64,000 nucleotides of DNA from Acidimicrobiia bacterium (GCA_022826705.1 JAJDUJ010000012.1:18486-82485), one strand, 5' to 3'. Shown: positions 1,724 through 15,683, counted from the first letter of the stretch. The notes: a model not told the origin generated them from the sequence alone. Made by a program: numbers and translations.

Positions 1724-1972
1724 CTCGTTCAAGGGGGTGCTCGACCACTAGCCGCGAAACCGCTCCTGCTTCCTGCCGGAAAGGCCACACCGCCGACACA
1801 GACCAAACCACAACCGACCCTGCTAACCCCCACCACGCGGGTAATCAGGTATGAATTCCCCTTGCTTCACCAACGCTTCATCGCGGGGGCTGGTGGGGTT
1901 TGGGTTTGACTTGTCCCCTCCGCGAATATTGGTCTCAGGGGATGTTGTTTCGTCACTCTTGGCCTGTTGGGT

Positions 1973-2206
1973 ATGCTTCTTTCTGTGGAGCTCACCACGA
2001 TGATTGAGACGAGGGCTGGTGTCCGCTGCGGCAAGCCCTGCTTCATTGGCACGCGGATAGCGGTCTACGATGTGCTGGACTATCTGGCAGCGGGGATGAC
2101 GCCGTTGGAGATAGCTGGTGATTTCCCCGAGTTGAGCGAGCAGCATGTCCTAGCTGCTGTTGAGTTTGCTGCGCTGCGCGAGCGGCGTCTGGCGACTCCT
2201 GCGTGA
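1973..2206 (+). CDS. DUF433 family antitoxin (VapB45-like); start uncertain
   Basis: GKPCFIGTRIAVYDVLDYLAAGMTPLEIAGDFPEL motif; GTGA overlap with PIN gene. Confidence 0.9.
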   Translation: MLLSVELTTMIETRAGVRCGKPCFIGTRIAVYDVLDYLAAGMTPLEIAGDFPELSEQHVLAAVEFAALRERRLATPA

Positions 2207-2544
2207 GGCTGCTGCTCGACCAGAACCTGTCGCGTCGCCTTGTGGGAATGCTGGTGGCCGAGTATCCCGGTAGCTGCCACGTTGTCGAAGTCGGGCTCGA
2301 TACCGCAACGGACCGCACCATCTGGGAGCACGCGCGTGATCATGGCTTTGCCATCGTTTCGAAGGACTCTGATTTCCGCCAGCTCGCATTCCTGTTGGGT
2401 CCGCCCCCCAAGGTCATCTGGTTGAGGATCGGCAACGCCACAACGCTCAAGATATTCAGTGTTCTCCAGCAGCATCGGGACATAATCGCTGAATTCGGTG
2501 CGAGCGAACAGGAAGCCCTACTGGTTCTGCCATCTGAGCTCTAG
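2203..2544 (+). CDS. DUF5615 PIN-like toxin (VapC45-like)
   Basis: MRLLLDQNLS, DRTIWEHA, IVSKDSDF, PPKVIWLRIGN. Confidence 0.9.
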   Translation: MRLLLDQNLSRRLVGMLVAEYPGSCHVVEVGLDTATDRTIWEHARDHGFAIVSKDSDFRQLAFLLGPPPKVIWLRIGNATTLKIFSVLQQHRDIIAEFGASEQEALLVLPSEL

Positions 2545-7011: not shown

Positions 7012-7096
7012 GCCGTGATTCACCCTGGGTTTTGCGCAGGCTCTAGAGATTGGAGCAAGCATGGGGTCCATGGATGCAGAGTTTCGTCCGGCGGCG

Positions 7097-7408
7097 ATGT
7101 CGAGGCGGTATTCGCCTGAGCAGGAGGAGCAAGCGGTGCGGTTGGTGCTGGCGCTGCGAGAGGAGTTGGGCGCCACGGCGGGGGCGGTGGCGCGTGTGGC
7201 TCGTCAGCTGGGCTATGGGGTGGAGTCGGTGCGCAAGTGGGTGGCCCAGGCCGAGATCGACGCCGGTGCCCGTGCGGGGGTGGCCTCGGCGGAGAGCCGG
7301 GAACTCAAGCGGTTGCGCCGGGAGAACCGCGAGCTGCGGCGGGCGAACGACATCCTGCAGCGGGCGGCGACTTTTTTCGGGGCGGAGCTCGACCGCCGAC
7401 AGCGATGA
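7097..7408 (+). CDS. IS3 transposase OrfA (HTH)
   Basis: RRYSPE, VARQLGYGVESVRKWV, LRRENRELRRANDIL..AATFFGAELDR; T-rich slippery motif near the end. Confidence 0.92.
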   Translation: MSRRYSPEQEEQAVRLVLALREELGATAGAVARVARQLGYGVESVRKWVAQAEIDAGARAGVASAESRELKRLRRENRELRRANDILQRAATFFGAELDRRQR

Positions 7409-8334
7409 CCGTGGAGTTCATTGACCAGAACCGCGAGGAGTTCGGAGTCGAGCCCGTCTGCTGTGCGTTGCAGGTGGCTCCGTCCACGTATTGGACCTCC
7501 AAGCGCCGGCCGCTGTCGGCGCGGGCTGTGAGCGGCGCTGCGCTGGTGCCGGTGCTGTTGGCGCTGTGGCAGGCCGACTACTCGGTGTATGGGGCGCGCA
7601 AGCTGTGGATAGCCGCCCGGCGAGCCGGCTGCGACGTCGGCCGCGGCCAGGTCGCCCGGCTCATGGGACAGCTCGGGATCCGGGGCGTCAAGCGGGCGAA
7701 GAAGGTGCGAACCACCCGGGCGGACCCCAAAGCCGGCCGGCCCGCCGATCTCGTCGAGCGGGACTTCACCGCCGAGCGGCCCAACCAGCTGTGGGCCGCG
7801 GACCTGACCCATGTCGCCACCTGGTCGGGGGCCGCCTATGCGTGTTTCATCACCGACGCGTTCAGCCGCCGCATCGTGGGCTGGCGGGTCGCGTCGAACA
7901 TGCGCACCCAGATGGTCCTCGACGCCTTGGAGATGGCACGCTGGACCCGCGGCGCCCGCCTCGAAGGGCTCATCGCCCACGCCGACGCCGGCAGCCAGTT
8001 CACCAGCATCCGCTACAGCGAGCGCCTCGACGAGATCGGCGCTACCCCGTCGATCGGATCGGTCGGCGACTCCCACGACAACGCGCCCGCCGAAGCCGTG
8101 AACCCCCTGTCCAAGACCGAGCTGATCAGAGGCCCCGGCCAAGGACCATGGCGCACCATCGACGACGTGGAACTGGCCACCCTCGGCTGGGTGCACTGGT
8201 ACAACACCGACCGCATCCACGGCTACCTCAACGACCAATCACCCGACCAGTTCGAAACGGCCTACACTGCCGCCAAGACCGGCCAAACAAGAACAGAAAA
8301 CCAAAACATTCAGCCTGCGCAAAACCCAGGGTGA
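7405..8334 (+). CDS. IS3 transposase OrfB (DDE integrase core)
   Basis: PNQLWAADLT, HADAGSQF, DNAPAE, WVHWYN; -1 frame relative to OrfA. Confidence 0.93.
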   Translation: MTVEFIDQNREEFGVEPVCCALQVAPSTYWTSKRRPLSARAVSGAALVPVLLALWQADYSVYGARKLWIAARRAGCDVGRGQVARLMGQLGIRGVKRAKKVRTTRADPKAGRPADLVERDFTAERPNQLWAADLTHVATWSGAAYACFITDAFSRRIVGWRVASNMRTQMVLDALEMARWTRGARLEGLIAHADAGSQFTSIRYSERLDEIGATPSIGSVGDSHDNAPAEAVNPLSKTELIRGPGQGPWRTIDDVELATLGWVHWYNTDRIHGYLNDQSPDQFETAYTAAKTGQTRTENQNIQPAQNPG

Positions 8335-8381: not shown

Positions 8382-8630
8382 ATGGCATCATCTAAAAGCA
8401 GTGGAGAAAGCTGCCCTCTCGGGCCTCCGTGGCTCGTTATCATCGTTCAAGCTGTTGCTGCCCTTGCATTGGTGCAGGGAGCCATTTGGCTGTTCTCTGT
8501 GTCTGAGCGGTTGGATTGGATTGTTTGGGTGGGCGTGGGGCTGCCGTCGGCTGCGGTGATTCACCGCTTCAACAAAGCTCGCTATGGGGCTGCCACCCGT
8601 TCGGCCGTATGGACACAGCGCTCGCGATGA
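8382..8630 (+). CDS. Small two-TM membrane protein, unknown function
   Basis: Hydrophobic stretches WLVIIVQAVAALALVQGAIWLF and WIVWVGVGLPSAAVI, basic tail. Confidence 0.55.
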   Translation: MASSKSSGESCPLGPPWLVIIVQAVAALALVQGAIWLFSVSERLDWIVWVGVGLPSAAVIHRFNKARYGAATRSAVWTQRSR

Positions 8631-9079
8631 GAGTTCCCCAGCCCAAGCCCTACCAGAGCCTTTTGGGCATAACGGCAGCGGCGTCCGCGCCCGGATGCCC
8701 GCCCCCTGGCAGGTTGCCGATGCCCACAAGTGGGCCGACCGAATACGCCGCGACATGGGATGGCCCACCACCACAGCCGCCCCCGAACCCCCCACCACAC
8801 CCCGGCGACGATACAGCCCCGGACACCCCGCGAATCAGTCGGCTCACCACCGCGATCTTGGCCTTTCTCGTTCACGCCGTGGGCGGTGGCCTGGTATATC
8901 TCCTCGTCTTCATAGTGTTCGGCCCGTGGGTTGCGGGCGTGTTGAACACCGACCCCACCACCACGATGCTGGTGAGCGCGGCCGCCTTCGCCTTGATAGG
9001 CGTCTTGATGATCGTGTCTCCATCAATCACTAGACGTGTCAGGGCGCGCTCTGCGCCAGTGCTGCGCGATCAAGCCTGA
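8627..9079 (+). CDS. Small two-TM membrane protein with Pro-rich N-terminus; start uncertain
   Basis: AILAFLVHAVGGGLVYLLVFIVFGPWV and MLVSAAAFALIGVLMIV, basic tail; ATGA overlap. Confidence 0.6.
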   Translation: MRVPQPKPYQSLLGITAAASAPGCPPPGRLPMPTSGPTEYAATWDGPPPQPPPNPPPHPGDDTAPDTPRISRLTTAILAFLVHAVGGGLVYLLVFIVFGPWVAGVLNTDPTTTMLVSAAAFALIGVLMIVSPSITRRVRARSAPVLRDQA

Positions 9080-9111
9080 TTCTTTCCAGCGGCCGCCCGC
9101 GCCTTGGTGGG

Positions 9112-9414
9112 TTAAACCGTGGGGTGCGACGAGTCAGGGTGCGCCGCCGCCGTTCCCATGTGGGATCGGGGGAAACGCTTCTCTAGAGCGTTTGTAAGCA
9201 GGATCGCCACAACCGCCATACCTACTGCTATCAGCGGAACCGCAGGAAAAAGCGGCAGATCGAGCAGATCCAGCAGATAGGGCGAATAGACCACCCCCCC
9301 ACAACCAAGGGCAGGCATTACCAACATCACCGTTTTCCCCCACCTGACACGTTGGCGGCGTGGCCGCTGGGGGTTGCTGGCCTTGGCGGTCTCCGAAGCA
9401 TGAGCAGAAGTCAT
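9112..9414 (-). CDS. Small two-TM membrane protein, unknown function
   Basis: VMLVMPALGCGGVVY and LFPAVPLIAVGMAVVAILL flanked by basic residues. Confidence 0.55.
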   Translation of the reverse strand: MTSAHASETAKASNPQRPRRQRVRWGKTVMLVMPALGCGGVVYSPYLLDLLDLPLFPAVPLIAVGMAVVAILLTNALEKRFPRSHMGTAAAHPDSSHPTV

Positions 9415-9454
9415 GCCACCAAGGTAGCCGCTCGCTGGGGAGCGCTCAACATTG

Positions 9455-9501
9455 GCGTGGCGGCGGCCACTTGACTTCTACTCATGTGGCCGCCGCCACG
9501 C
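9455..9501. repeat. Perfect 16-bp inverted repeat
   Basis: gcgtggcggcggccac (9455-9470) / gtggccgccgccacgc (9486-9501); outer gggagcg/cgctccc can extend it. Confidence 0.85.
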
Positions 9502-9594
9502 TCGCTCCCGATCCTACGCCATGCGCTTGGCGGTCAGCATGGCGATTGTTGCCCGATGTTGCCTGTTGTGCTCTGGTTGTTGTAGGTTGTCAGC

Positions 9595-9747
9595 CACCTA
9601 GTGAAAGCCCGTGGGGTTTCCCTGCGGTCAGATGTGTAGTGGGTCGGGAGCCGTATTTCCCCCTCAAGGAATTCTGGGTCTTGGCCCCCTTCGGATTTGG
9701 CCGCGGGCTTTCGCTAGGTGCAAATCCCGACCTTCCGAAGGGGGCCA
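9595..9747 (+). promoter_or_regulatory. Structured 5' leader with alternative long stems, one masking the RBS
   Basis: 9595-9614 pairs with 9701-9720 (20 bp, 2 G-U); 9682-9695 pairs with 9734-9747 (14 bp, covers GAAGGGGG); 9642-9649 pairs with 9725-9732. Confidence 0.5.
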
Positions 9748-9751
9748 CCTC

Positions 9752-12119
9752 GTGTTCCGCCGTTCCGTTGTTCTGTTCGTCGCGTTGTGTTTGGCCGCGG
9801 CGTTGTTGCCCGCCGCTGTCCAGGCCCATTCTCCGCGGTCTGAGACCTACAACTATGAGGTCGATGTCCCCAAGACTAAAGAGGTCCCGGTCTACACGTG
9901 GGTTTCGCTCCGCGTCCGTGTCGCGCCGTTCACCAAGACGGTGCCGGTGTACGGGCCGGGAACTGTCACTGAGTGTGTGACCATCAACGAACAGCACGTC
10001 TGTTACGGGGTGCCGGGAATTGTGCAGGTGGGCACCAAGACGGTTCCCGTTTACAACTACAAGACCGGCGAGCCGTTCCGGGTGCAGACCGGCACGAAGA
10101 TCGAGACCTACACGGTCACGGAGACCAGAACCGGAACCCGCAGAGTCCACACTCCCCACACCTGTACCCCCCCCGGCGGTGCTGCAAGGACACGACACCT
10201 GCGTAAGCCCAGCCCCGAAGCCTGGCCCTTCCTCTACCCCAGCCCCGACTCCCAAGCCGACATGCCCGGCGCACACCTTTGAGCAGCCGCTTCCGCAGCG
10301 CGCGGTTTTCTATATCGACGCTGAAGAGGTAATCAGGCTCCAATCCGATTACGAACGCGGATATCCGGCTGGTTCCTATGTCGTATGGGAGCCTGTTTGG
10401 AAGGCGCTCGACGACAACCCCAACTGCTACCAAGTTCTGCTGCGCACCAACAGCAAATTGACGTTGGGCGACGTTTGGGACGGTGTTTGGGACGGCGTAT
10501 CGGGATTCGTTCTCGACGGCGTGAAGTACGCAGTCATCGGTGGGAAAACCGTTATAAACGGGGCAGAATTTATTGTCAGAAACGGAAAACTAGTCCTTGA
10601 AGTAGCAGAGGACCATGTGCTCTCAGCAGCAGAAACAGCGGCCAAAGCGGCGGCAGACTCAGCTATAACAGCCCTCGAAGCAACCGACAGATACCTCAAA
10701 ACAACGCTTTGCTCCGCTACTGGTGCAGGAGTAACAACGATAGCGGCTGGAACCGCGGGTCATTTCGCCGGAAAGACGGCAACTATAGCCAGAATCGCTG
10801 CGACTGTGAGCCTCGCAACGCCACCCGGCATCGGAACAGCTATAGGAATAGGGATAGGGATAGCAATTGTTGCTTATTGCACCGACGGGTTCACGTCTAA
10901 TCCCTACAACGATTCGGCTCCGGAGCCTGCTTCTGGTTTGTCTGCGAGCGCCGGGGCCGGGCGGATAGTGGTTGCCTGGTCCGCGTCGGCGACGGTTCCC
11001 GCGGCTGGTTTCGGTTATCGGGTTCAGTGGTTGTCGGGTTCTCAGACGTGGGCTGAGTCTGAGGCTGCGGACCAGTTTGAGGATTTGAAGCACGGTTCGG
11101 ATTTGGCGACCTCGTACACGATCACCGGGCTTTCGGGCGGGTCGGCCTATGACGTGAGGGTGGCGGCGTTCAACGCCGATGGGTTCTCTGATTGGGTTTC
11201 CGGCCAGGCCACCCCCACAGCCCCGGCGGTGTCGGCTCCCGATCCGGCGTCGGCCCTGTCGGTTGTGGCGGGCGATAAGCAGATCGCGGTCTCGTGGTCG
11301 GCGTCGCCCACCACCGAGGGCCTGCTGGGCTACCGGGTGCAGTGGAAGACGGGCGCTCAGACGTGGGATCAGGCGGTGTCGGCCAACCAGTTCCACTCGG
11401 TCACCGGCACCCGCCATGAGATCACCGGGCTTGTGAACGGCTCGGCCTATGACGTGCGCGTGGCCGCGTTCAACAAACAGGGCCTATCGACCTGGATCGA
11501 CGCCACCGCCACCCCCACCGCCCCGGCCTCAGCTCCCGATCCGGCGTCGGGCCTGTCGGTTACAGCGGGCGATAAGCAGATCGCGGTCTCGTGGTCGGCG
11601 TCGGCCACCACTCCCGCCGCCGGGTTCGGCTATCGGGTGCAGTGGAAGCTTGTGACCCAGGCGTGGGGTGACGCCGCTGTGGGGTCCGAGGACTTGGACC
11701 ACGGCTCGGATTTGGCCACATCGCACACGATCACCGGGCTTGTGAACGGCTCGGCCTACGACGTGCGGGTGGCCGCGTTCAACGCTGATGGCGTCTCAGA
11801 CTGGATCACCGGCCAGACCACCCCCGCAGCCCCCAAGCCGAATCCGAAGCCCTCTTTGGCGTTCGACTCTGTTTCGTGCGAGTCGTCGGGCTCGGGCTGG
11901 GTCATCTCGGTTTCTTGGAGCAAAACCCCCGAAACCCTCAAACCGGACATCTGGGCGAACGAGGCGAAAAACCGCGGCCACCGCGGATTCCAACGCGCGG
12001 TCGCGGGCACCTCGACGACGTTCGACGTGCCGAACGCCGGTTGGTACCAAGTCGGAATGCAAGCCAAGATCGCCGGAAACAAAAAAGTAGGCGACAGCGA
12101 GCCGGTGCGCTGCCGATAG
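9752..12119 (+). CDS. Secreted multidomain protein: signal peptide, beta-rich N-domain, Gly/Ala-rich hydrophobic module, 3x fibronectin type III; frameshift at a C8 tract
   Basis: GTG after GAAGGGGG; signal MFRRSVVLFVALCLAAALLPAAVQA; removing one C from 10167-10174 joins ORF 9611..10282 to ORF 10020..12119 (788 aa); FN3 motifs VSWS, GYRVQW, TITGL.NGSAYDVRVAAFN. Confidence 0.8.
10914..11830 (+). repeat. Three tandem FN3-encoding units (about 300 bp each)
   Basis: Near-identical DNA blocks such as gcgggcgataagcagatcgcggtctcgtggtcggcgtcg and gatcaccgggcttgtgaacggctcggccta in units 2 and 3. Confidence 0.9.
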
Positions 12120-12129
12120 AACCGCACCC

Positions 12130-12239
12130 CCGCAAAACCCGAGACCGCAAAACCCGAGACCGGCAAAACCCGCTGGGGCGCTCTCCCGGCGCTGTGGTGG
12201 CGCTGAGGCCCGCTGGGGCGCTCTCCTGGCGCTGTGGTG
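12130..12239. repeat. Nested short tandem repeats downstream of the FN3 gene
   Basis: ccgcaaaacccgaga x2 plus a partial third; cccgctggggcgctctccYggcgctgtggtg at 12169 and 12209 (40-bp period). Confidence 0.85.
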
Positions 12240-13062
12240 ATCGGCCCGCCCCTCGGGGCCTCCAGCGGCGCTGTGGGCGCTCCCAGCTCCCGCTGCGGCG
12301 GCCCCGAGGCCCCCGCCCGCGCCGCCCGCCGGACCCATAAACCGCCCCCAGCCCCAGCGCAGCGCCCCCCGGCCCCCTCCGGTGTTACACCCCACCCCCG
12401 AAACCCACCCCCGGAGCCGAGCGCCGGCGTCGATCCCCGAGGCCCTCCAGCTCGGCTGTGGCGGCCCCTGGTGGACGTCGGGGGCCTGGGCGTGGCCCTC
12501 GATCCGCTGGGGCCTCCGGCTCGGCCTGGTGGGCGGTGGCGGTGTTTGGGGGCTTTGGGGGTGCTCGGGTACCGGGCTGGGGCCGTAACGGGCCGCTGTG
12601 GCGGTGCGGGGCGCTCTCAGCGCCGGTTTTGGGGGCCACGCGGTCGATCCGCTTATGGGTGGCTTGGCGGGTGAGCCCGGATTGCTCTGAGAGGAACAGG
12701 ATTCCGGTTTGCGGGGCCAGCTCGGCCATGAGCTAGCTAGCCAGCTCCGACCATTGGGCCATCATCTCGCCCACGTCTCGCATTCGGGCCAAAACGGCCT
12801 CTAGCTGATCCATCAGCGGCTCATCGTCCCAAATGACTATCGGCCGATCCTGGAGCTCGGGGGAAGCGGAAACCATGTAATCAAGGTGTGAAAACGGCCT
12901 TAGAGCGCCGCAGGCCCGGAGGCAGCGCCGGGAGGCCCTGGGAGGCCTTGACGGCCCTAGAATCGAGCCCTGAGGGCGTCGCGCCCGATCCCCCGGAGCT
13001 GGAGGCCTCACAGCTCTTTTCTGGCCGCCGGGCAGCCCGGCGTCATTCGATACTGTGTCCGC

Positions 13063-13386
13063 ATGGCTGTTACCAGCGTCCCTAAAAGCTGGCTGCGGGA
13101 GTGGCGGCGCTCGGTTTTGCTGCTGTTGTTCTGCGGTTACGGGGTAATGATGAACGGCATTTGGGCTCTGGTTGTATATACGCCGATGGGCTGGTCTGAT
13201 CTTGGGGCCTTCGGCGGTGCTTTTGTGGGGTCGTTTGTGAGCATGATGGCCATGAGCAAAAAGGCGGCCCTGCGGCAGTTGCAGCGGTTCTCCGATTTTG
13301 GGATCGAGCCCGAGAGCCCTGAGACGTTCGTGAAGTCTCCCCGCGCCATAGCCCGGAGACGCGCCAGGGCTAGGAGAACGGATTGA
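13063..13386 (+). CDS. Small two-TM membrane protein, unknown function
   Basis: VLLLLFCGYGVMMNGIWALVVY and LGAFGGAFVGSFVSMMAM, basic tail; lower GC than flanks. Confidence 0.6.
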   Translation: MAVTSVPKSWLREWRRSVLLLLFCGYGVMMNGIWALVVYTPMGWSDLGAFGGAFVGSFVSMMAMSKKAALRQLQRFSDFGIEPESPETFVKSPRAIARRRARARRTD

Positions 13387-13649
13387 ACCCCTGCCCGCGC
13401 CCCCGGCTCCGAGAGGGCCAGATTCTTAGCCGGCTGCTCGGCGGTATCGGCCGGACCGCTGCGGTGGGGCGGGGCATGATCGCTCACGCCCTCACCCCCA
13501 CCAGCGCTCCCAAGCTCGAGCGCCTGGGCTTGAGATTTCAGGGCCGCTCTCTCCTATCACCACTTCTGCCAGCTTGGCTGCGCGGTTCACAACGCTTCGG
13601 GCCATGCCCCCACTGTAGGGGAGCGGGCGGGCCGGGGCCACTGGCTGGC

Positions 13650-13910
13650 CTAGGGGTCGGGGCGGCCGAAAATGTCGATGTCATCGCGGTCGCTTTCGAG
13701 CGTGCGGAAGCGATGGCTCAACCATTTTCCGGCGCGGAAAACCAGATAGGAGCCAAAAATCACGATGCTGAAAGTGCAGAGCACCAGGTAGAGGGGGGAG
13801 AGGCCCAGACCGGCCAGCCCATCTCTGATTTCGCCGGTCATCGCCCCGCAGACGATGGGCGGGTATCCATACCAGGGCATCTTTTTGTAGTTCTCTCGTA
13901 AGACCCCCAC
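13650..13910 (-). CDS. Small membrane protein, unknown function
   Basis: WYGYPPIVCGAM and LGLSPLYLVLCTFSIVIFGSYLVF, charged tail. Confidence 0.55.
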   Translation of the reverse strand: MGVLRENYKKMPWYGYPPIVCGAMTGEIRDGLAGLGLSPLYLVLCTFSIVIFGSYLVFRAGKWLSHRFRTLESDRDDIDIFGRPDP

Positions 13911-13917
13911 AGCCCTG

Positions 13918-15390
13918 TTACCGCCCAGGGGCCGCCAGCGCTGCGGGGGTCGGGTTGGGCGGCCGCTGGAAGCTCATTCCGCAGGCGTTTAGAACCCGGT
14001 TGATTTCTCTGGCGGCGCCGGTGGTGTCGAAAACGATTGTGCCGATCAGAGACTCATCGTGGTTCCATGCTGTGAAGGTGAGTTCTTGGGTTGCGGTCAG
14101 CCAATCGGCGAACTCTATGGGGTTGGGGGCGAGTGCGTGTTCGTTGTTTTCGGATTCCTCCCACAGCACGTTTTCCAGCGGGTGCGGGGGCGAGCCGTCG
14201 CGTTCGTAGTAGACGGGGATTTTGCCGCTGAGCGCTTGTTGGCCGCTTATGCGTTGGCCGTCGAAGTCAACGAAAACGCTGAGCGAACCGTCCTCGCAAA
14301 GGATATTGAGCGTCGGGGTGTCGTCGTCGTAGGGGTGGTCGAAAGTGTTGCTCTCTGAGAGGAGGAAGCTGTGGACATACAGAAACCCCGGAACGAGGCT
14401 TTCGAGCCGGACCCAAGACGTGCCTTCCACCAAGCACAAGGTAACGAGGTCCTCAAATTCAAGGAACGGCAGGCAGGCCGGATCGTCTGAGCTTTCCTGC
14501 GTGCCGCAAACTCCCGCTGTGGGGATGCCCGCATACTCGGTGAAAAGGTGGTCGGCCACGCAGCGGAAAACGTCGTTGTGGAAGCACCTTTGAAGCTCCC
14601 TGTCGAAGGCGGCCTGGTCGCACTCTGCTATTGAGGGGTGGTCTCTCATCAAGGCGTGGGCCACTTCGTGCAACAGCGTCTCGGTGAAAGCGTCTGAGCG
14701 GGTGATGTGGTGGGCCTCGAAGTCGTAGCAGCCCAAGACAACGCCGCCGAGAGCGCAGGCGGTGGCGGCGTTCGCCGGAACCAGGGCGCTTGTCGGCGGG
14801 TCGGCCGGTTTGCCCTCCACTTCGACTTCCTCCCAAATCACCCCGATCAAAGCATCGGCGTCGGCATCGGACAATGCCCGGTTGTGATCTGGGTTGTCCC
14901 GGTACGGCTCCCAAGCGCAATTCTCCCAGGCGTAGCCGCCCCGCGAGGCTTGCTCAGCGCACCTTCCCTCCGGGGCGTCGGCGGGAACCTCTATGAGAAC
15001 AGCGCCGCTAGCCGGGGTGGTTGCCGCTGGTGCTTGCGGCCCATCGGTTTGGCCGTCTTCGTTTGCGCCCCAGCACTTGATGGCGCCCGCGGTGTCGATG
15101 GCGCACAAAACAAGCCAGAGCCAGCTGAGATGTCGGTGTAGCGGCCCTCCGGCGCATCGGTTACGATAACCGCGTTGTCGCCCCAGCAGGCGATGGTCTG
15201 GTCGGCTGCGATGGCGCACGAAAACAAGCCAGAGCCGGCTGAGATGGCGGTGTAGCCGCCCCCTTCCGGCGCATCGGCCTGGCCGTCGTCGTTCAAGCCC
15301 CAGCACTTGATGTCACCCCGCAGTGTCGATGGCGCACGAATGGCTCTGGCCGGCGGCGATGGCGGTGTAGCGGCCGGCTTGCTCGTAGCG
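13918..15390 (-). pseudogene. Frameshifted, 5'-truncated RCC1-repeat protein with HExxH zincin-like domain and VasI-like C-terminal domain
   Basis: RCC1 units (YTAIAAGQSHSCAID, IKCWG.NDDGQADAPEG) are spread over three frames; LLHEVAHAL...H..F motif; C-terminal PTLNILC...W...VFDTTGAAREINRVLNACG. Confidence 0.7.
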
Positions 15391-15683
15391 GTCGCCTGTT
15401 TCCAGGCGACGCGGTACTTGAGCAAAAAGAACCCCGAGAGCAGCGGCGGCGTTCGGCTCGATTCCCCTGAGCCGTAGCGGCTGCGGGCAGGGAGGTGAGT
15501 TTTGCCATGAGGCCAAGCTACCCCGCAGCGCCCACAGCGCCGCCATAGCCGCCACAGCGGCCGAGAGAGCGCCCAGGGCCTCGGGGGTGTTCGGTGTCGG
15601 CGGGTATTGTGCGGGTGTGGCTCGGGTTTGGCTACCGGGTGGGGGCAGAATGCAGAGTCTTTGGCCTAGGATCGGCTCAAGCT

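Follow-up and report, generated by a model that had tools for sequence, protein, structure and literature searches.

Pore-forming colicins carry a helical hairpin that is recognized within the membrane by a small immunity protein with several transmembrane (TM) segments, specificity residing in the TM helices, and in the IdsD/IdsE recognition pair of Proteus the variable regions lie in membrane segments. In Staphylococcus aureus, EsxX/ExiCD is described as a glycine-zipper membrane toxin with membrane immunity proteins that are also found as orphans (PMC12744356), and rAID-1 of Bacteroidales is described as arrays of small genes with a XerD-like tyrosine recombinase at one end, skewed GC content and intergenic repeats (10.1101/471110). 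For sponge-associated Acidimicrobiia, an enrichment of fn3 proteins is reported and a role in host recognition suggested (PMC11706023). Here we analyzed a 64,000-nucleotide stretch of an Acidimicrobiia bacterium (GCA_022826705.1, JAJDUJ010000012.1:18486-82485; hereafter the window), in which a large gene with a Sec-type signal peptide and FN3 domains is surrounded by small open reading frames (ORFs) for membrane proteins at positions 8,382 to 13,910. An initial annotation made from the sequence alone had proposed an FN3-carried membrane toxin with a possible array of immunity proteins.

The large ("big") gene encodes a Sec-exported modular protein carrying a helical hairpin of 42-73 residues closed by two invariant cysteines. 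By sequence comparison, the hairpin is swapped between copies together with matching small membrane-protein genes, an arrangement suggestive of an effector/immunity or recognition pair not described before. The window itself holds a decayed copy (frameshifted, flanked by an IS3 element and with no recombinase seen) of this lineage-restricted "hairpin-and-cassette" locus.

A cysteine-closed hairpin in a Sec-exported modular protein

The family is defined by a central module, which in the window lies at 10227..10931 (+ strand) and was delimited with alignments A3 and A5, a profile search and AlphaFold2 secondary structure of low confidence. The module opens with a small Cys-containing beta domain (CPxxx...W..(N/D)..CY in the window; ending in W..(D/S)N..CY in the family), followed by beta-hairpin repeats of the form GVxY(V/A)V..GK, a helix, then the hairpin bracketed by cysteines, and a long, acidic, Asp/Ser-rich linker. 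Three cysteines are invariant across 16 module sequences, and the Cys bracket pointed out in the initial annotation, encoded in the window by TGC codons at 10710-10712 and 10878-10880, is invariant in this 16-sequence alignment. The AT-richer segment reported there was also confirmed, GC content being 0.53-0.55 in 10350-10949 versus 0.60-0.69 alongside; GC at third codon positions (GC3) is 0.54 for 10284-10910 versus 0.79 in the N domain and 0.80 in the FN3 part, with 0.40 in the hairpin loop. As for the claimed hydrophobic hairpin, arm 2 of the window copy is TM-like (GIGTAIGIGIGIAIVAY, Kyte-Doolittle (KD) 19-window values of 1.81-2.09) and arm 1 is not (KD 0.88). Arm 2 reads GIGTAIGIGIGIA and contains GxxxGxxxG, a motif not general in the family. 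The stretch GDVWDGVWDGVSGF, described as amphipathic, lies inside a segment predicted as beta hairpins by two low-confidence models.

AlphaFold2 models of the module reached a mean predicted local distance difference test (pLDDT) score of 54.0 with 16 rows and 57.7 with 23 rows, and scores below 50 for the hairpin ruled out a comparison of its fold. Foldseek of the module model, itself poor, returned nothing from the PDB (best E-value 0.41), and ESM Atlas scores stayed at or below 0.82, the Colicin and Gly-zipper clusters scoring 0.78, which is chance level. Pfam and NCBIfam scans of the family protein matched no model except fn3 on any part.

Across homologues the central module is hypervariable, as the initial annotation had anticipated. 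Loops are mostly Ala/Gly/Thr/Val/Ile-rich, with polar or charged loops at loci L011, L012, L013, L031 and L033; KD values of at least 1.5 are reached by both arms in 1 of 23 genes, by arm 2 only in 13 and by neither in nine. Loop GC3 is below that of the downstream FN3 part in all 23 genes (mean 0.44 vs 0.80). Since polar loops are also low in GC3 (0.48-0.64), AT-richness goes with the segment being variable and not with its coding for hydrophobic residues, and the same dip makes it unlikely that low GC3 serves translational pausing for membrane insertion. Between related genes, the ratio of nonsynonymous to synonymous substitutions (dN/dS) in the loop is 0.79-1.8 (for L014/L015, 0.491/0.273), and that of the flanks (70 codons before the loop; FN3-to-end part) is 0.15-0.32. 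The loops of L017 and L018 differ with a dS of 1.46 in near-identical surroundings (dS 0.0 in the preceding 70 codons, 0.05 in the rest), so that the loop segment alone was replaced between them. Similarity among modules is mosaic, separate segments matching separate genes, and an island between nusB and pyrR that is orthologous in five genomes holds four different hairpin types. These comparisons show the predicted hairpin to be the fast-evolving part of the gene, exchanged by recombination and atypical in codon composition. The indel-rich divergence of the loop does not look like the adenine-directed mutagenesis of a diversity-generating retroelement.

The genome (3.45 Mb, 31 contigs) holds four copies of the big gene, the paralogs of the window copy lying at C6:118531-120456, C31:113760-115949 (-) and C8:789-3071 (-). 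The last FN3 and C-terminal domain form the most conserved part of the protein (80-95%) and are 80-89% identical among the four paralogs in alignment A2 (84-92% by BLAST); the central modules of these paralogs are only 36-49% identical, and the family has several kinds of N-terminal region that are unrelated to one another. When 5.8 billion proteins were searched by word index with the module as query, two matched, one being the window's own, and a profile of 16 modules searched against 1.84 billion representatives recovered 31 at E <= 1e-3 and 22 at E <= 1e-10. Scanning one genome per species yielded 25 loci, all in five sponge-associated Acidimicrobiia genomes or metagenome-assembled genomes (MAGs), nine of them in one 'Candidatus Poriferisocius' chromosome and with one to five FN3 domains per gene. 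Of 301 genomes sampled from the order, four matched the module profile, and of 39 genomes of the genus, seven gave strong matches to the conserved 3' part. JGI metagenome contigs scanned with A2 gave 91 pattern matches, none of which was confirmed. At least 7 of the 31 representatives (P0011, P0014, P0015, P0018, P0020, P0025 and P0026) and four further loci (L036-L039) carry the module without FN3; because such members exist, the family-defining core is the module and not FN3.

In the window, the big gene had been taken for one ORF over 9752-12119. Its Sec-type signal peptide is present (MFRRSVVLFVALCLAAALLPAAVQA, followed by a beta-rich N domain), and a single frame is not, the 2368 nt not being a multiple of three. 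According to the ORF list, the 5' frame (9752..10282, +) runs from a GTG at 9752, a start that agrees with P0003, to a stop at 10280-10282; it encodes the signal peptide and an N domain with 'VPVY' repeats that is 60% identical to the C31 and 46% to the C6 paralog, and stops after the frameshift. The module and FN3 part belong to another frame (ORF 10020..12119), whose 3' portion (10176..12119, +) covers a Pro-rich linker, the central module, three FN3 domains (~10926-11820) and a conserved C-terminal domain of ~92 amino acids (aa; ~11841-12116). The three FN3 domains of the initial annotation were recovered as three stretches matching Pfam fn3 (E 8.1e-30). Because intact paralogs and a homologue stay in the N frame through '...TETRTGTR..H.PH', the frame break is placed at or next to a C8 homopolymer at 10167..10174 (+), identified from the sequence and the paralog alignment. 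This C8 run is the only C/G run of at least seven inside 29 family genes (runs of at least eight number 10 genome-wide), and as it is unique to the window copy, homopolymer slippage is out as a family-wide phase-variation or contingency switch. L015 and L025 have G10 and G13 runs just ahead of their family genes; these occupy the 5' edge of the stop-to-stop frames and precede the likely starts. A Logan contig of a sponge metagenome run matches 9600-11260 with 0 differences at a depth of ~12; the frameshift is therefore not the artefact of one assembler, the run being the probable source of the assembly and thus neither an independent sample nor a source of independent reads. We read the window big gene as a pseudogene, a decayed copy.

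P0002, from another assembly, is 99% identical, and its gene call of 551 aa begins at an internal start, consistent with the same frameshift; its C-terminal domain resembles that of the C6 paralog and not that of the window copy, which points to gene conversion or chimeric assembly among paralogs. Family proteins end in ...GDSEPVRCR or ...SVRAQCPS without a hydrophobic tail, and so do not show the C-terminal organization (LPXTG, TM segment and basic tail) of a sortase-anchored surface protein.

Small membrane-protein cassettes and their linkage to the hairpin

Five ORFs around the big gene (s1-s5) had been proposed as small TM proteins. They are indeed mutually dissimilar, each with one or two hydrophobic segments by KD, and four of them, s2-s5, belong to conserved small membrane-protein families with homologues beside family genes in other genomes. 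The remaining one, s1 (8382..8630, +; 82 aa, one hydrophobic segment), is not supported as a gene: no homologue was found in its own genome or in the 25 related loci, and GC at its three codon positions (0.60/0.57/0.58) gives no coding signal. The s2 gene (8627..9079, +) encodes a two-TM cassette protein, identified by homologues and two KD segments, of the "NPPPHP-leader" class, whose small two-TM members share an N-terminal 'MVGGMxYQNPPPHPxDDT' leader and have very different bodies; its homologues lie in L017 (77%), L018 (76%), L027 (60%) and the C6 island. Upstream of the big gene and divergent from it, s3 (9112..9414, -) encodes a 100-aa two-TM protein (KD segments) with tblastn homologues in L026 (84%), L011 (69%) and L035 (58%), the one in L026 having the same position and orientation relative to a P0003-like gene. 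Downstream, s4 (13063..13386, +; GC3 0.72) encodes a 107-aa protein with two TM segments by KD and a basic tail; an ORF next to a fragment of a family gene in L030 encodes a homologue (49% over 100 aa). The 86-aa protein s5 (13650..13910, -; GC3 0.77) belongs to a well-conserved small membrane-protein family (MKLNIGRNRK.LPWYDY ... RFPALKSEHVGYFDR; alignment A4) with members in L011, L021, L032, L035 and, as two copies, L023; it lies 243 nt downstream of the big gene in L032, whose hairpin is the closest to that of the window. A complex prediction for the window hairpin (A3 residues 125-235) and s5 scored 0.00, which gives no verdict either way. None of s1-s5 matched a family in Pfam, NCBIfam or PADLOC.

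In the family at large, between one and five genes encoding small proteins with one or two TM segments lie beside the big gene, in arrays of up to four or five; such a gene lies 116-417 nt downstream in at least eight loci and directly upstream in others. Cassette GC3 is lowered, at 0.62-0.77. The 29 loci compared (25 fetched and the genome's own four) contain 20 leader cassettes, all on the strand of the big gene, at most 2.9 kb up- or downstream of it and with up to four in tandem. Their conservation is at the DNA level, extending from ~35 nt before the ATG through the first 20 codons and including synonymous sites. The conserved blocks are the inverted repeats GGUGUAUGGUGGGGGG and CCCCCCACCACACC, predicted to form a GC-rich stem of 14-15 bp around a loop of 15-17 nt that holds the AUG. 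All 13 of the 13 cassettes folded (including L017:10800-10865) do so at -21 to -36 kcal/mol, with z from -2.0 to -5.9, and no compensatory changes were found in the stem among cassettes. The NPPPHP peptide motif is the translation of the stem's 3' arm, a clean case of a protein motif that exists owing to nucleic-acid structure. The stem could act in RNA, regulating translation by masking the G-rich ribosome-binding region, or in DNA as a site of recombination. In the window, the 5' end of s2 is rearranged, with the 3' arm kept at 8786-8803 and the 5' arm missing, and no stem-loop folds (z -0.47); the lost stem is another sign of decay of the window locus.

The exact leader DNA pattern has 26 matches in 8 of the 39 genus genomes and none in a reversed control. 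Three of these eight genomes have no FN3-type gene; in them, the cassette lies directly upstream of a divergent FN3-less family gene in four of four resolvable cases, a fifth ending at a contig edge. These three genomes were the candidates for orphan cassettes in family-free genomes, and none was found; cassettes occurred only beside family genes.

Hairpins were typed by eye into seven multi-member types and seven singletons, and the best cassette identity was taken for each pair of loci, excluding the leader and using only pairs without shared outer flanks. A cassette of at least 45% identity is shared by four of five same-type pairs (100, 80, 75 and 45%) and by 14 of 65 pairs whose hairpins differ (p = 0.014, one-sided Fisher test), two of the five same-type pairs not being independent. 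Outside this count, from which it fell because the L024 ORF was missed, the pair O6/L024 has the same hairpin type in different contexts and a cassette type unique to the two (41% over 104 aa). Between L036 and L039, only the module (78% over 143 aa) and a cassette (78% over 104 aa) are common to both; no match extends to the intervening N-terminal half of the gene or to the flanks. In four co-varying pairs, the cassette is on the opposite side of the big gene or in the opposite orientation, so simple block duplication does not explain the linkage. Together these comparisons are moderate evidence that hairpin and cassette co-vary. Across the loci compared, the hairpin gene is in obligate genetic linkage with small TM-protein cassettes, and a given type of hairpin accompanies a given type of small protein from one genomic context to another, unrelated one. 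The initial expectation that hairpin swaps co-vary with small TM genes thus held at non-orthologous loci, with a small sample and a mismatch at the s2 of the window.

Mobile elements and repeats accompany these loci. In the window, an IS3-family insertion sequence (7061..8334, +; orfA 7061-7408, orfB to 8334; Pfam HTH_Tnp_1, rve and HTH_21) lies directly upstream of the locus, with an ALIL frameshift pseudoknot at 7366-7482 (Rfam, 80 bits), and a near-identical transposase end lies beside the C8 paralog. A tyrosine recombinase (Phage_integrase with a SAM-like N domain, far below the NCBIfam cut-offs for XerC/D and integron integrases) is often found upstream of the big gene and divergent from it. 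It is present in full at 8 of the 25 fetched loci, with one more cut by a contig end and one weak match, and at two of the genome's own four loci, those of the C6 and C31 copies; at the orthologous nusB-pyrR island it is 96% conserved. Beside the window copy, none was seen in the ORFs read, which were not exhaustively scanned. Downstream comparison of 25 family genes revealed a conserved GC-rich tail after the stop, with degenerate GGCGCTGTGG/GGCCCTGAGGCC repeats, and GCTGTGG/GCTGGGG-rich relatives of the repeat follow the stop of most family genes and precede cassettes. In the window, this non-coding tail (12120..12620; GC 0.79) contains 40-nt tandem repeats at 12170-12276 (GGGGCGCTCTCCYGGCGCTGTGG; repeats D5 and D13), to which a genome-wide search found a close match only at the window copy.

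A proposed effector/immunity pair and rival explanations

We prefer the effector/immunity form of the hairpin-cassette pair, to which we assign a probability of roughly 0.4, because it would explain the divergent arrays, the small genes kept beside a broken gene, the recombinase, the skewed composition and the repeats. The hairpin and its cognate small TM protein would meet in the membrane as a specificity pair, the hairpin acting as a membrane-active effector (glycine-zipper-like in the window copy) that is neutralized there by the TM immunity protein. Extra cassettes would be orphan immunity genes, and the XerC/D-like recombinase, the intergenic repeats and the stem-loops may function in cassette turnover or in shared regulation. 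A big gene that is broken while its small ORFs are intact fits retained immunity. Where computation could have contradicted the initial annotation it did not: the module varies, homologues in other genomes do have adjacent small TM genes, and the small ORFs match no known family. The toxin/immunity proposal is thus partly supported, as a cognate-pair system.

Several observations weigh against effector/immunity. No toxin family, fold or motif was found by Pfam, NCBIfam, ESM Atlas or Foldseek; the window gene is frameshifted; and FN3 is not a general carrier, given the FN3-less representatives and loci. The co-variation sample is small, drawn from genomes of close kin and typed by eye; the fifth same-type pair, W22/L032, has only a 27%-identical s5-type gene in common, and the window s2 is closest to cassettes tied to a different hairpin type. 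No one membrane mechanism can cover all members, since nine of 23 lack a TM-like arm and five are polar or charged. The variable module is internal, between long Pro/Thr-rich and Asp/Ser-rich spacers, a layout in keeping with a hairpin that is anchored in the membrane of the producer while its two arms span the wall; the K/R residues in the hairpin turn and the acidic residues after Cys2 fit an N-out/C-out hairpin there, and an arm 2 with a KD of ~2 would probably be integrated by Sec instead of released. These features feed a serious rival, which we nevertheless rate as rather unlikely, in which the product is a membrane-anchored, two-headed surface protein, an "eukaryotic-like" FN3 adhesin or host-interaction protein of a sponge symbiont. 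The disulfide-stapled hairpin would be a re-entrant or TM anchor, the spacers would cross the wall to display the N-terminal repeats and the FN3/C-terminal domain, and the small TM proteins would be partner subunits within the membrane (for stabilization or signaling, for example), with variation arising from host or phage pressure. The signal peptide, extracellular-type domains and paired cysteines agree with it, as do the TM-like arm 2 of 14 of 23 genes, the conserved last FN3 and C-terminal domain, as expected of a constant binding end, and the reported fn3 enrichment with its suggested role in host recognition (PMC11706023). Yet an anchor would be lost in the many members without a TM-like arm, and a simple anchor leaves unexplained a dN/dS near or above 1, segmental replacement and invariant cysteines; nor do up to four or five divergent small TM genes at one locus and none at others resemble stoichiometric subunits.

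It is improbable that there is no functional pairing at all, the TM genes, recombinase, IS elements and big gene being independent cargo of recombination-prone islands and the low-GC3 hairpin just a linker that drifts quickly under relaxed constraint. IS3 and recombinases do accompany the loci, the window copy and a neighboring RCC1/HExxH gene are both broken, repeats in fragmented MAG assemblies may be chimeric (as in P0002, a 99% copy with a C6-like C terminus), and the co-variation statistics are weak (related pairs). Independent cargo is hard to square, however, with a Cys bracket and module architecture kept across 31 representatives, with cassettes confined to the vicinity of family genes, with a module and cassette shared by L036 and L039 without the intervening DNA, and with the conservation of the recombinase at the orthologous island. 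Least probable among these explanations is a self/non-self recognition pair, in which the hairpin would mark identity and a sibling cell would read it through its cognate small TM protein, a logic comparable to that of IdsD/IdsE. It would agree with the hypervariability of the module, the co-variation of TM partners, the presence of several allelic loci in a genome and a dense clonal habitat (sponge metagenome), but no delivery system is linked to the loci, paralogs with cassette arrays are more typical of weapon/immunity sets, and nothing in the data favors it positively.

A more detailed proposal, which we hold as tentative and on balance doubtful, is a new class of cassette-based specificity system in Actinobacteriota that would combine an exchanged, disulfide-stapled hairpin in a Sec-exported protein, as polymorphic effector or identity tag, with co-varying TM immunity or receptor cassettes, start-codon stem-loops bounding these cassettes and a dedicated XerC/D-like recombinase turning them over, expanded in sponge symbionts to ~9 loci per genome. 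Should hairpin and cassettes prove to be an effector/immunity or recognition pair, sponge-associated Acidimicrobiia would have their first described interbacterial-specificity system. If the pair is a true one, the polymorphic module is placed inside the protein and not at its C terminus, and part of the FN3 "eukaryotic-like protein" enrichment of sponge symbionts may concern interactions between bacteria and not with the host. Natural cognate and non-cognate sets of hairpins and cassettes exist, which makes pairing directly testable.

Neighboring genes and comparison with described systems

Downstream of s5, the window encodes an RCC1-repeat protein with HEVAH (HExxH) at 13918-15555 (-), apparently broken up into three reading frames (minus-strand ORFs 15313-15555, 14991-15425 and 13918-15306), which may be either a second broken gene in the island or a mis-assembled repeat; L030 and L012 have homologues (54-59% identity) next to their family genes. 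At 1967-2544 (+), two overlapping ORFs (79 and 113 aa) form what we take to resemble a toxin-antitoxin-type pair. The island between nusB and pyrR holds a family locus in the same genome (G000 C6:117036-126550, L008 and its neighbors) and also in L016, L017, L027 and L031; it encodes a 591-aa AlbA_2/HATPase_c_4/DUF5635/MarR-like protein that is 99-100% identical in five genomes and has weak PADLOC matches to pAgo-associated proteins. In L036 (G315:C1:319500-335500), the big gene, cassette and a transposase lie between an amidohydrolase-like gene and a copy of its last 168 codons, which suggests that they may have been inserted as a unit.

Searches of the literature, subscription journals aside, on Poriferisocius, on fn3 and other eukaryotic-like proteins of sponge symbionts and on sponge polymorphic toxins found no description of the family or the locus. 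The nearest described systems each share part of its design. As in pore-forming colicins, a hydrophobic helical hairpin is combined with a small TM partner, but the module has ~90 helical residues in place of a ten-helix bundle, the export route and phylum differ, and Pfam gave no match to the Colicin pore-forming domain (PF01024) at E <= 0.1. An integron is ruled out, the best NCBIfam match, NF040815, scoring 46.6 bits against a cut-off of 220 for the integrase; the 14-15-bp stem at each cassette start (13 of 13) invites comparison with attC sites, but encloses the start codon and shows no compensatory changes.

With rAID-1, the loci have in common small-gene arrays with skewed GC, repetitive intergenic DNA, variable content and, at part of the loci, a tyrosine recombinase (10.1101/471110). 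The rAID-1 arrays are described as co-directional with their recombinase, whereas here the recombinase is divergent and often absent (10.1101/471110). Those arrays hold homologues of known type VI secretion system immunity genes without an effector, whereas the present cassettes match no immunity family, stand with a large secreted protein whose module co-varies with them, and occur in the phylum Actinobacteriota. EsxX (PMC12744356) and TelE of S. gallolyticus (PMC10434224) offer a short Gly/Ala-rich membrane-active segment, to which the GxxxGxxxG of the window arm 2 may be compared, and small polytopic membrane immunity proteins whose genes are also orphans in islands. Their segments are C-terminal on LXG carriers of the type VII secretion system; here the hairpin is internal and Cys-bracketed in a protein with a Sec signal peptide and no LXG, and in many family members a glycine zipper or any hydrophobic arm is absent.

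Polymorphic toxins (Zhang et al. 2012, PMC3482391) likewise have a module diversified by recombination, an adjacent small gene, extra cassettes and multiple loci. Their layout of constant N-terminal trafficking region and variable C-terminal toxin is not that of this family, which varies internally and also in its N-terminal part and is most conserved at the 3' end; stand-alone hairpin cassettes were not found. The fn3 "eukaryotic-like proteins", a descriptive class and not a functional family, come from the same host group and have the same PF00041 domain. The main-text passages of that study count domains and do not describe the hairpin module, cassettes or recombinase (PMC11706023). With up to nine genes of one to five FN3 domains each in one chromosome, the hairpin family probably contributes to the fn3 enrichment of sponge Acidimicrobiia.

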